Positions 8,101-63,588 of a DNA stretch of 64,000 bases are shown piece after piece; position 1 is the first letter of the stretch, and every line of letters begins with the position of its first letter. The DNA comes from an uncultured virus (IMG/VR IMGVR_UViG_3300027628_000015) (lineage: Duplodnaviria > Heunggongvirae > Uroviricota > Caudoviricetes > Herelleviridae), in IMG/VR virus record IMGVR_UViG_3300027628_000015. The stretch is one strand, 5' to 3'. The notes beneath the pieces were generated by a model, which was not told the origin of the DNA, made no database searches, and saw only the letters and a program-made list of their open reading frames with translations. A program made the position numbers and the translations under genes.

Positions 8101-8116
8101 AATTTTTAAAAAGGGG

Positions 8117-8146
8117 TTGACTTAATGTCAACCTCTATGGTAAACT
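8117..8146 (+). promoter_or_regulatory. early promoter with TTGA-N7-TCAA palindrome
   Basis: GGGGTTGACTTAATGTCAACCTC...TGGTAAACT. Confidence 0.75.
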
Positions 8147-10213: not shown

Positions 10214-10216
10214 GGG

Positions 10217-10245
10217 TTGACGTAAAGTCAACTATTTGCTATACT
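10217..10245 (+). promoter_or_regulatory. early promoter with palindrome
   Basis: TTGACG-17-TATACT; GTTGACGTAAAGTCAAC. Confidence 0.85.
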
Positions 10246-10465: not shown

Positions 10466-11017
10466 ATGAATTATGATCAAGCGATAAAGACGGTAATAAG
10501 AATTTCAGATCAGTATAGAAAAAAGATGTCTACGCTTAAAAATGTTAAACCTATGATGCGTGAGCTAAAAGAAGAGTTAGCAGGTATAGTAGACTTAAGT
10601 GGCTGGATATTTACTCACAATATTGTAATGACTAAAGGGTGGGTTAAAAGCGTTAAAGGTGATACACTATTTGAGTTCGAGAAGCAGGAAGACAACCACT
10701 TTAAGATTATCCTTGTATTTAAAGGTTGGGACGCTATCTTACCTACAGACGAACAGTTATTTAAGATTACAGCTAAGCAGCATACACTTAATGTTCTCAA
10801 GAAAGTTACAGAGGCAATCGAAAATGAAGACTGGAAGGCGTTAGAGCAATTAACTGAGCGATCAGCTGCTGGAGATGGATATGGAGACGATAACATCTAT
10901 ATAGATTTTACTCCACATACAGACTCGGACCACTGGAATGAGCGTTATGATATATCCGATATGGAGTCTATGATACGTAACGGATATGAATTTAACGTAA
11001 CAGAGGAGGAAAAGTAA
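10466..11017 (+). CDS. hypothetical protein
   Basis: RBS AGGAGG. Confidence 0.8.
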   Translation: MNYDQAIKTVIRISDQYRKKMSTLKNVKPMMRELKEELAGIVDLSGWIFTHNIVMTKGWVKSVKGDTLFEFEKQEDNHFKIILVFKGWDAILPTDEQLFKITAKQHTLNVLKKVTEAIENEDWKALEQLTERSAAGDGYGDDNIYIDFTPHTDSDHWNERYDISDMESMIRNGYEFNVTEEEK

Positions 11018-11740: not shown

Positions 11741-11761
11741 TTAATATAAGGAGGGGAAGGA

Positions 11762-13123
11762 ATGCCATACGCACAAACTAACCTGCCACCTCCGCTTTCA
11801 ACTACAGAGAACTATCAACTACTTAAACTACTACAAGCGGACCCGGAGGATGATGAGGTAAGAGGTAAACTTATAGAAGGAAACATACGGCTAGTTATTC
11901 ATATCGCTAATAAGTTCTTCAATATAGGTACAGTTGACGAACTTACTAGTATAGGTACGATAGGATTAATCAAAGCCGCTAACAGCTTCAACTTAGATAA
12001 GAAAGTAAAGTTTGCTACATACGCCAGCACTTGTATTACTAACGAGATACTTATGTATGCAAGGAAAACAAATAAAGACCGGGTAGTTACGTCTCTGGAT
12101 ACTGTTCTCTCCTCTGATATGGACGGAGGAGAGCTTACCTTAATGGATGTGATATCTGATGAAACTATAGAAGACTTCTCCACTTCTTTCGTAGAACATG
12201 ATAACATGGAAGATGTAAAGGAGGCAATAGCTCAATTACCTGAACAGCAGCAAGAGGTACTTAAACTATACTACTCTGGAGAGCTTACCCAGACAGAAGT
12301 AGGTAAAGAACTAGGATTCAGTCAATCATATATGTCTAGGCTCCGTAATAGAGCCTTGAAAAGCGTTAGAAAGATTATTGATAAGAAGTATAAAGGTGAT
12401 GTAGTAACAGCTCATCACGTACCTAATAGAAGTATTAAAAGGGAGGAAAAGGAAATGGCAAAAGATAATAAAATTAAAAGTGTATATAGAAATGTAGAGG
12501 TTAAAACTATAGCGGAGCAAAAAGCAGTAGACTTACTTAAAGATACTCGAGATAATTATAAAGATGTAAGTGCAAAAACAGGTGTTAGCTACGCTAGAGT
12601 AGTAACGCTAGGTAAAGATTCCCGTTCTGAGTCTCTTCGTAAAGAATTAAAAGCTGAGCAGGTTAGATTAAATAGATTGAAAGCAAACAATAACAATAAA
12701 GTAAATAAATCTACAAATATAGTAGCACACCAGCCCGAGCTAACTAAAACTCCATCCGAAACATTAGGTAAATCTATATCTCATAAGGTAGAAGAGCAAC
12801 TGGCTAACAATCTTGGCGGCTCGATACAGCCTGTTTCTAGTGCTACGGCTGAAGTAGAAGGGATTAATTTTATTAATTTATCTGAAGAGACTAGAAAGAA
12901 ATGGTTTAAGAGTGCTGAGCCATCTATAGGAGCTCCACAGTATTCAGAAGAGTCGAAGAAAGGTGTTATTAAGCGATCATGCTTTATCGATGCTGCTACT
13001 AAAGGTGAGGCTGTATCAGTTAAAGACTTCTTGGATGAATTAAAGCGTGTAGGTGCTGTAGTAGACCCAGATATCGATGCAGAAGTTACATTCGAAATAA
13101 AAATTAAAGCAGTTCAAAAATAA
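11762..13123 (+). CDS. sporulation SigE/SigK-like sigma-70 factor with ~220-aa C-terminal extension
   Basis: LPPPLS; LIEGNIRLVIHIANKF; SIGTIGLIKA; ATYASTCITNEILMY; TQTEVGKELGFSQSYMSRL. Confidence 0.9.
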   Translation: MPYAQTNLPPPLSTTENYQLLKLLQADPEDDEVRGKLIEGNIRLVIHIANKFFNIGTVDELTSIGTIGLIKAANSFNLDKKVKFATYASTCITNEILMYARKTNKDRVVTSLDTVLSSDMDGGELTLMDVISDETIEDFSTSFVEHDNMEDVKEAIAQLPEQQQEVLKLYYSGELTQTEVGKELGFSQSYMSRLRNRALKSVRKIIDKKYKGDVVTAHHVPNRSIKREEKEMAKDNKIKSVYRNVEVKTIAEQKAVDLLKDTRDNYKDVSAKTGVSYARVVTLGKDSRSESLRKELKAEQVRLNRLKANNNNKVNKSTNIVAHQPELTKTPSETLGKSISHKVEEQLANNLGGSIQPVSSATAEVEGINFINLSEETRKKWFKSAEPSIGAPQYSEESKKGVIKRSCFIDAATKGEAVSVKDFLDELKRVGAVVDPDIDAEVTFEIKIKAVQK

Positions 13124-13135
13124 TTAAAAACAGGG

Positions 13136-13164
13136 TTGACTTTTTGTCAACCTTCCTCTATACT
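13136..13164 (+). promoter_or_regulatory. early promoter with palindrome
   Basis: TTGACT-17-TATACT; GGTTGACTTTTTGTCAACC. Confidence 0.85.
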
Positions 13165-17361: not shown

Positions 17362-17421
17362 AATAACGGTTGACTTTAAATCAACCACATGCTATACTTA
17401 GTATATAAGGAGGAGATAGTA

Positions 17422-62519: not shown

Positions 62520-62948
62520 ATGTCTGAAAATTATGAAAACCAGATCGAGGACTTAATGCCTAAACAAGACCTTACCCCTGAAGAACGTGAAGCAAACTTA
62601 AGCTTACAGAAGAAGAAAGCAGTAGATCGTATCGTCCGAGGAGTAAATGATACGTTTATTAAAGATTATACATTTGAAGATTTAGACTTAAAATTCACTA
62701 TTAAAATTAAAGCGCCTAACGCATTAGATATCGGTAAAATTCAAGCCCGTGCAGCTGCTTACTTAGGTGGAATGAATACATACCTAGATAACTACACAAA
62801 CACAGTGTATCAAACTCTAGCAACAATTCGTACCACAGGAATTGAAGTACCAAAAGTATTAGCAAATGACGAGGACATATATAATCTAGATATTCTATTT
62901 CAGATTGGGGTCGATTTCAAGCAGTGGCTTGACAACTTTCGACTTTGA
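62520..62948 (+). CDS. tail assembly chaperone
   Basis: position before tape measure; late-promoter motif at 62479. Confidence 0.8.
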   Translation: MSENYENQIEDLMPKQDLTPEEREANLSLQKKKAVDRIVRGVNDTFIKDYTFEDLDLKFTIKIKAPNALDIGKIQARAAAYLGGMNTYLDNYTNTVYQTLATIRTTGIEVPKVLANDEDIYNLDILFQIGVDFKQWLDNFRL

Positions 62949-63588
62949 GATAGAGAAGCTTGGTGGATTAAAAGCGCTATCTCGGACTCCATATATGCGG
63001 AACTTGTGGGCACTAATGAAGACTTTCAATACAATGCCTACAAACCCGGATTTTCTTGCTTTAACAGATAGGCAAGTAGATTTAATGATCTATTCATTAA
63101 ATGAAGATCACAGAGAAATGGAGCTTGCTCGTAAAGGACTTACTGTTGATTCTGAACACTACGATTCTAACTTTGAAGAAGAAGTATGGAACAGACAAGT
63201 CGGTGATTGGGAAATTCTTAAAGATGGACATGACCCTGATGATATTGCTAGACAGGTGGAAGAGCTTACTCGAGCTGAAGATCGTAAGAACCTCGCAATG
63301 AAATTTGACAGCCTAGAAGAGTATAACGATTACTTAGCCGCAGGTGGAAAAACAGTTCGTGAGACTGAAGTAGAGCAATATATTAACAAACAAATCCAAG
63401 CAGCAGAAGAAATGGCTCGAAGACTTTCAGCAACAGGAGAAAAGAAAAAACTTGTGGACGATCAAGATAGACCTGAGACAGATTCAGCTCTTAGTGATCA
63501 TTTACCTGACATTGATAAAGCAGCGATTGACAAATCGATTGCCCTATTTAATGCTCAAGATGATGATGACGATTTTAGTGCTTTGTAA
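62938..63588 (+). CDS. tail assembly chaperone C-terminal extension (+1 frameshift)
   Basis: overlapping +1 frame, TTT CGA CTT TGA at junction, no good RBS. Confidence 0.7.
   Translation, partial: FDFEIEKLGGLKALSRTPYMRNLWALMKTFNTMPTNPDFLALTDRQVDLMIYSLNEDHREMELARKGLTVDSEHYDSNFEEEVWNRQVGDWEILKDGHDPDDIARQVEELTRAEDRKNLAMKFDSLEEYNDYLAAGGKTVRETEVEQYINKQIQAAEEMARRLSATGEKKKLVDDQDRPETDSALSDHLPDIDKAAIDKSIALFNAQDDDDDFSAL

Follow-up and report, generated by a model that had tools for sequence, protein, structure and literature searches.

A phage sporulation-type sigma factor fused in one ORF to an HTH module, with a retained and probably functional internal start at the join

Some genes encode two proteins in a single reading frame by means of an internal SD and start codon; in E. 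coli CheA-S, ClpB-80 and IF2-beta, in T7 gene 4B and in lambda Nu3, the short product has been demonstrated. The gene described here resembles these nested genes in that one ORF holds an internal ribosome-binding site (RBS) and an in-frame start, which would give a full-length and a C-terminal protein, although the short product is putative in our case. Unlike in those genes, its internal start coincides with a true gene junction in relatives.

Phage-borne sporulation-type sigma factors are described, in the available text of two studies, as reprogramming Bacillus hosts (PMC9429907, PMC2716549). The lytic Bacillus myophage SPO1 encodes gp2.21, a sigma of a sporulation-like, sigK type (available text of PMC9429907), and our locus is similar on that description in that a lytic Herelleviridae phage carries a homologue of a mother-cell-type sporulation sigma; the tblastn match in SPO1-like phages covers sigma residues 57-197 only. 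The sigma genes of phage Eldridge have been tested, and in the available text ELDg169 activated sporulation genes in B. subtilis (Schwartz et al. 2022, PMC9429907); the words "C-terminal", "extension" and "fusion" occur zero times each in the main text of that paper. The available text of Schuch and Fischetti 2009 (PMC2716549) treats bcp25 and bcp26 alone, and "bcp24" does not occur in it. We found no description of a module accompanying the sigma factor in the literature searched, including the available text of PMC9429907 and PMC2716549. Fused C-terminal regulatory domains are described for ECF sigma factors (available text of 10.1101/2019.12.11.873521), and the likeness, to the extent of that text, is that a sigma is extended C-terminally by a non-sigma domain. 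Unlike the ECF proteins, the one reported here is a phage sporulation-type, group-3-like sigma, and its extension consists of an HTH, a disordered tether and a small C-terminal domain (CTD), with its own RBS. From the comparisons below, we regard the gene as a conserved sigma-module fusion with a retained internal start that is probably functional, kin to both extended sigma factors and nested in-frame genes.

The window, by which we mean the whole 64,000-nt stretch of DNA that was analyzed (IMG/VR record IMGVR_UViG_3300027628_000015), is part of a Bacillus myophage genome of the Herelleviridae/Bastillevirinae. Among named phages, vB_BmeM-Goe8 is its closest relative (90% nucleotide identity across the gene's first 483 nt). 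The ORF at 11762-13123 closes a run of small plus-strand genes, and the genes for terminase, portal, capsid and sheath come later in the window. Junctions between the small genes are stereotyped, with the SD inside the preceding gene's last codons and TAA abutting ATG. About 20 small genes are packed with this junction between about 9200 and 16750, and because the junction SD sits in their last codons, many of the encoded proteins end in EEK, EEE or EGK. The junction motif GAGGAAAAGTAAATG has exact copies at 11006, 15530 and 16124 and, with up to two mismatches, 16 matches in the window vs. 0.34 expected (100 shuffles). An earlier note on this DNA, made from its letters alone, had singled out GAG GAA AAG GAA ATG (E E K E M) at 12443-12457 as a copy of this motif altered by one base. 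The string is indeed present and in frame within the ORF, and its one difference from GAGGAAAAGTAAATG is G for T at position 12452. Of the ORF's codons, 231 (11762-12454) precede the internal ATG and 222 (12455-13120) run from it to the stop; we refer to the two parts as the sigma domain and the module (Table 1). The palindrome GGTTGAC-N5-GTCAACC, or a near variant, recurs at 8115-8133, 10215-10233, 13134-13152 and 17366-17388, where it lies between operons of the small-gene block and shares bases with the -35 hexamer (TTGAC) of sigma-A-like promoter sites; it may serve as a common operator or as a terminator/promoter unit.

Table 1. Features of the fused sigma-module gene and its surroundings (window coordinates).
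Feature	Position	Strand	Remarks
SD core GGAGG of the sigma gene	11750..11754	+	7 nt before ATG 11762; duplex with 16S tail -12.2 kcal/mol
Full ORF, sigma domain plus HTH-linker-CTD module, 453 aa	11762..13123	+	Stop TAA 13121-13123; fused homologues known
Sigma domain, 231 aa	11762..12454	+	SigE/SigK-like, without pro-sequence; Pfam, NCBIfam, Foldseek
Sigma region 2, aa 37-104	11870-12073	+	Pfam PF04542
Sigma region 4, aa 155-204	12224-12373	+	Pfam PF04545
Joint between region 4 and module, ~aa 212-231, variable, predicted disordered	12398..12454	+	pLDDT <50 for residues 212-244; sequence and length vary in relatives
Candidate internal ribosome-binding site, AGGGAGGAAAAG	12440..12451	+	GGAGG core 12442-12446; in-frame reading R E E K
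GAA codon where the junction motif has TAA	12452..12454	+	AAA in Goe8 and relatives' contigs, AAT in f2b1
Internal ATG in frame, where a free 222-aa product may start	12455..12457	+	Met invariant in both relatives' alignments; GTG aligned in Moonbeam
Module N-terminal domain, module aa 9-85: beta-hairpin, three-helix HTH, long basic helix	12479..12709	+	AF2 pLDDT 81-96
Low-complexity variable linker, module aa 86-179	12710..12991	+	pLDDT mostly <50; unalignable, length-variable in relatives
Conserved C-terminal domain, module aa 180-222	12992..13120	+	Kept in fused and split forms; pLDDT 62-75; no family match
Palindrome GGTTGAC-N5-GTCAACC overlapping promoter-like TTGACT-17-TATACT	13134..13164	+	Operon end/next operon start

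The first part of the protein is a sigma-70 family factor by Pfam gathering scores, with 47.9 bits for PF04542 (cut-off 24) and 48.4 bits for PF04545 (cut-off 24.1), and its domains are modeled at pLDDT 76-90. Foldseek returned 162 matches at E <= 0.001, led by sigmaS, SigA, SigB, SigD, SigH and WhiG. Membership in the ECF group is not indicated (PF07638, 13.3 bits vs. cut-off 21.1). The best curated NCBIfam matches of residues 1-231 are SigE and then SigK, both sporulation sigmas, at scores below the equivalog cut-offs: 184.9 bits vs. 339 and 175.3 vs. 348.6 for SigE (NF006158/TIGR02835) and 165.1 vs. 252 for SigK. The pro-sequence of pro-sigma E is absent, the SigE alignment beginning at profile position 35 of 241 with protein residue 6. 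By these profile scores, the sigma domain is SigE/K-like and is an equivalog of neither. A search of bacterial-genome contigs matched sigma genes in 596 of 600 stretches; the best 80 of these 600 lack the extension, since they align solely to residues 1-246 (41-48% identity). Among phage families, the sigma part matches PHROG 351 at E 1.4e-44 (profile 485-729) and the module matches the same family at E 1.5e-4 (profile 749-926), while the module also matches PHROG 8794 (E 4e-7).

The module (222 aa) comprises a small HTH domain, a disordered linker of ~95-100 aa and a CTD of ~45 aa. The HTH that had been proposed from the sequence (YKDVSAKTGVSYARV, module residues 35-49) falls on predicted helices H35-42 and H46-56, where the model's pLDDT exceeds 90. 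Residues 232-453 match no Pfam or NCBIfam family (HTH Pfam matches are sub-threshold), the modeled fold has no Foldseek match at E <= 0.001, and a PDB sequence profile search with the module gave nothing below E 0.09. VIA-align of the model retrieved generic HTH domains alone, with Z up to 4.9; these cover model residues 4-64, leaving the CTD effectively outside. ESM Atlas matches are unnamed clusters of 157-166 aa (0.89-0.90). We also considered a SpoIIID-type HTH and rejected it: none of 10 module sequences matches PF12116 at E <= 5, and hhalign against Priestia SpoIIID gave a probability of 10% across 42 columns. The predicted HTH suggests DNA binding, and the modeled long tether with its CTD suggests a second contact.

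Relatives carry the two parts both fused and split. The close relatives are fused, as are Eldridge, Moonbeam, P59 and IMG/VR contig L015; the genes Eldridge_0172, Moonbeam 165, P59 168 and Goe8 c02260 and the one in f2b1 share the window's fusion, together with its SD and start at the join. Eldridge_0172 is presumably ELDg169 of Schwartz et al. 2022. The sigma partners differ: the window's group has a SigE/K-like one, and Eldridge, Moonbeam and P59 have a SigF/G-like one. A module search of 1.84 billion representatives gave 10 proteins, nine of which are sigma fusions, 420-605 aa long, that match in their C-terminal part. We rejected the tenth, P0014 (199 aa), as a split allele: only 22 nt of its contig (L012) precede the ATG, and the frame is open across them, so it says nothing on split vs. 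fused. Among 325 candidates, no homologue of 122-389 aa was found. Viral-contig scans with the module alone and with P0014 alone gave no relatives, while a scan with the relatives' alignment gave Goe8, the f2b1-like contig L004 and an unrelated two-HTH ORF (L005), and a metagenome scan with a smaller relatives' alignment gave L012 as its sole match. L005:2202-2887 holds a GIY-YIG-like ORF and, downstream of it, one of 111 aa whose two HTH repeats resemble the module HTH; this pair may be a split homing endonuclease. In Eldridge and Moonbeam, a second sigma gene adjoins the fused one and has an HTH-only C-terminal extension, without CTD and without SD/Met, and another 164-kb phage encodes a sigma plus HTH of 328 aa, also without CTD; loci of such HTH-only sigma extensions are L006:1-810, L007:1-812 and L016:685-1671.

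The window's gene is a mosaic. The N-terminal half of its sigma domain is 98-99% identical to those of Goe8 and P0004, while the C-terminal half is 95% identical to P0005 and 56-58% to Goe8 and P0004; for the module, identity is 92-100% with P0004 and P0005 and 44-54% with Goe8. Compared with P0004 alone, the module is 92-96% identical and the sigma C-terminal half 58%. With one mosaic breakpoint at the join and the module present on two sigma types, the join acts, by the evidence of these alignments, as a module boundary.

In the Caeruleovirus phages Bc431v3, Kioshi, Bcp1, BM15 and Deep Blue, tblastn against phage genomes located the module as a separate gene of 163-166 aa. In the five phages inspected, its ATG follows the stop of a sigma gene (249-253 aa) by one base, at a junction reading ...GGAGGAGTTTAAT ATG or a near variant, with GGAGG or GGGAG 8 nt upstream of the ATG. 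In the Nitunavirus phage Grass, the sigma gene includes a first HTH, and 18 bases beyond its stop comes a separate gene for a 138-aa HTH-CTD protein. As in other fusion/fission pairs, both halves thus exist as adjacent separate genes, in five Caeruleovirus phages and in Grass. The tblastn list has 41 records, 37 with at least 80% coverage, mostly under features named "hypothetical protein" or "sigma factor". Named stand-alone counterparts are Bc431v3 orf107, Kioshi 203, Bcp1_201, BM10_207, Blue_087 and Grass_167 (PHROG 8794; RefSeq name "sigma factor"). They share with our module its three-part architecture, the conserved HTH and CTD, the location immediately downstream of a sporulation-type sigma gene and an SD placed 8 nt ahead of the ATG. 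They differ in that the Caeruleovirus sigma gene ends (TAA or TGA) one base ahead of the ATG, which is in another frame, and in that their sigma partner is SigB/F/G-like whereas that of the window is SigE/K-like. The earlier note had described a sigma joined to a formerly separate gene. The distinct module, a separate gene at a like junction in related phages, agrees with this description, but the history it implies is only one of two: in a crude NJ tree (Biopython; 145 of 371 columns, midpoint root, no support values) the split forms make up one clade, so one fission is as parsimonious as two fusions.

Evidence for an internal start is found in the nucleotides at the join. The SD is intact, as the earlier note had reported. 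Its GGAGG at 12442-12446 lies 8 nt before the in-frame ATG 12455, and SD and ATG are conserved at the nucleotide level. Its predicted duplex with the 16S tail (-11.9 kcal/mol) is close to that of the gene's own RBS (-12.2). On both strands of the window, there are 49 sites with GGAGG, 5-9 nt and ATG followed by at least 40 open codons; 46 of these look like gene starts because an in-frame stop occurs within 27 codons upstream. Only three lie deep in an ORF: 12442 (235 codons, the deepest), 1010 (42) and 40807 on the minus strand (76). Two further in-frame SD-plus-ATG sites inside ORFs are the one at 1010-1028 (gene 900-1148) and one at 12143, which is common to Goe8 and has 11-nt spacing. A search for an internal promoter upstream of 12455 found none above chance (35 sites vs. 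37.3 expected).

The same arrangement recurs in the relatives. A GGAGG/AGGAG core stands 8-9 nt before an in-frame start at the join in all eight complete fused genes with DNA (window, Goe8, f2b1, L004, P59, Eldridge, Moonbeam and L015), which represent about four independent lineages only; seven of them have ATG there, and Moonbeam has GTG at the aligned codon. L012, whose contig is cut at its end, has this SD and start as well. Across 3,965 codons, the join accounts for 8 of only 12 in-frame SD-start sites of this kind. The peptide at the join differs by lineage (REEKEM, EEEKDM, KETITM, EEEMDTV) while the SD and start are retained, and AGG GAG GAA is identical in all four group-A sequences (window, Goe8, f2b1 and L004), where the rare AGG makes up 5.9% of Arg codons and the probability of AGG GAG GAA given R E E is 0.014 per lineage under the window's codon usage. 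We infer that selection at the join acts on nucleotides. The 60 nt around ATG 12455 fold at 0.0 kcal/mol, among the weakest 1.2% of the gene's windows, and local folding at the join is weaker than the gene mean in 8/8 fused genes; low GC (0.25) alone may explain this weak folding. As in nested in-frame genes, then, an SD core is found 5-10 nt before an in-frame start and is conserved in relatives beyond chance.

Three other explanations of the locus were weighed against a maintained fusion with an internal start. The ORF might really be two genes, joined by a sequencing or assembly error at 12452, to which we assign a negligible probability: a depth-290 contig of the likely source run has 0 differences from the window, though it is possibly the window's own source and so not independent, and independent relatives likewise lack a stop at the aligned codon, the contigs of relatives from another run (X2) having A at 12452 (codon AAA) and T in none. 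Contigs of four public runs were compared with the gene, and those of X3 (RNA) and X4 covered only small parts of it. Alternatively, a recent change of TAA to GAA might have fused genes that are still separate in close relatives, as the position of the site one base off the local junction motif would suggest and as the earlier note had implied. This did not hold up. All six close homologues (Goe8, P0004, P0005, P0006, f2b1 and L004) are fused, and TAA at the codon aligned with 12452-12454 is found in no close relative: the join reads AGG GAG GAA AAG AAA ATG in Goe8, AGG GAG GAA AAT AAT ATG in f2b1 and IMG/VR contig L004, and REE(K/N)KM at the peptide level in P0004-P0006, with Lys at the aligned codon. 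A single transition from AAA is the simplest origin of the GAA in the window, and we consider the recent change very unlikely. The fused state is old, since phages whose sigma domains are only ~50% identical (window vs. f2b1, with a 15-residue indel beside the join site) share the fusion. On the strength of these relatives, we conclude that ORF 11762-13123 is an authentic, evolutionarily maintained sigma-module fusion.

The alternative that deserves the most weight accepts this fusion and holds that the 453-aa protein is the sole product, with the SD-like string and Met kept for another reason, such as a role of the joint peptide, inter-domain ribosome pausing or slow decay of an old junction. 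Glu and Lys codons make SD-like sequences easily, so that E/K-rich linkers readily encode such purine-rich strings, and elongating ribosomes crossing the site could limit internal initiation. AF2 places a low-confidence helix over residues 223-232. A protein-pattern survey (24 rows, with two 90%-identity clusters collapsed to give 19 distinct fused proteins) points both ways: an acidic pair plus Met stands at the join in 15 of the 19, and the pattern is missing in four: Grass166, with Met but no SD; Moonbeam, with GTG; and P0009/P0016 and P0011, available as protein only, with no Met. Against the single product, the peptide varies, yet the SD core, the 8-9 nt spacing and a start-capable codon persist, even through the ATG-to-GTG change in Moonbeam; the rare AGG is kept throughout group A; and the join holds two-thirds of all such sites in the 3,965 codons. 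Passive retention is unlikely because the fusion is old, with its partners' sigma domains so far diverged and an indel beside the site. We consider the single product possible, though unlikely, and prefer the reading in which the internal start is used.

In the preferred reading, a sporulation-type (SigE/SigK-like) phage sigma is joined to an HTH-linker-CTD module in one ORF, and ribosomes would most likely also initiate at the internal ATG 12455, because a full-strength RBS, an ATG and unstructured, A-rich mRNA come together at the join. Internal initiation yielding a free 222-aa protein is thus likely, in our estimate with moderate confidence. One mRNA would then give a 453-aa protein with sigma and module tethered, plus the free 222-aa module, and, more speculatively, the cis (tethered) and trans (free) forms may set the module dose. 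It is a doubtful further step to a two-in-one regulator, in which a tethered sigma partner and an excess of free partner compete with or complement each other (e.g., at the same DNA or RNAP site) and so tune or time the sigma. Sigma fusions in general may keep an internal start at the join.

Among the phages compared, the module always accompanies sporulation-type phage sigma genes, either fused or as the next, tightly coupled gene, and so regular an association argues for a joint function of module and sigma. Being fused to, or translationally coupled with, two sigma types would mark it as an obligatory partner of the sigma; speculatively, it could be a DNA-binding or RNAP-associated accessory. 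Experiments that clone the sigma part alone and those that clone the whole ORF may test different things. The join would also be an example of a gene boundary at which a one-base change can turn the fused state into the split one, or back, with both products retained.

Two further loci in the window are worth recording. The ORF at 21516-22058 matches the ocr-like anti-restriction family phrog_2568 (E 1.3e-35). The overlapping ORFs 62520-62945 and 62905-63585 both match the tail assembly chaperone family phrog_4988 (profile 2-138 and 134-349, respectively) and are the usual tail assembly chaperone frameshift pair.
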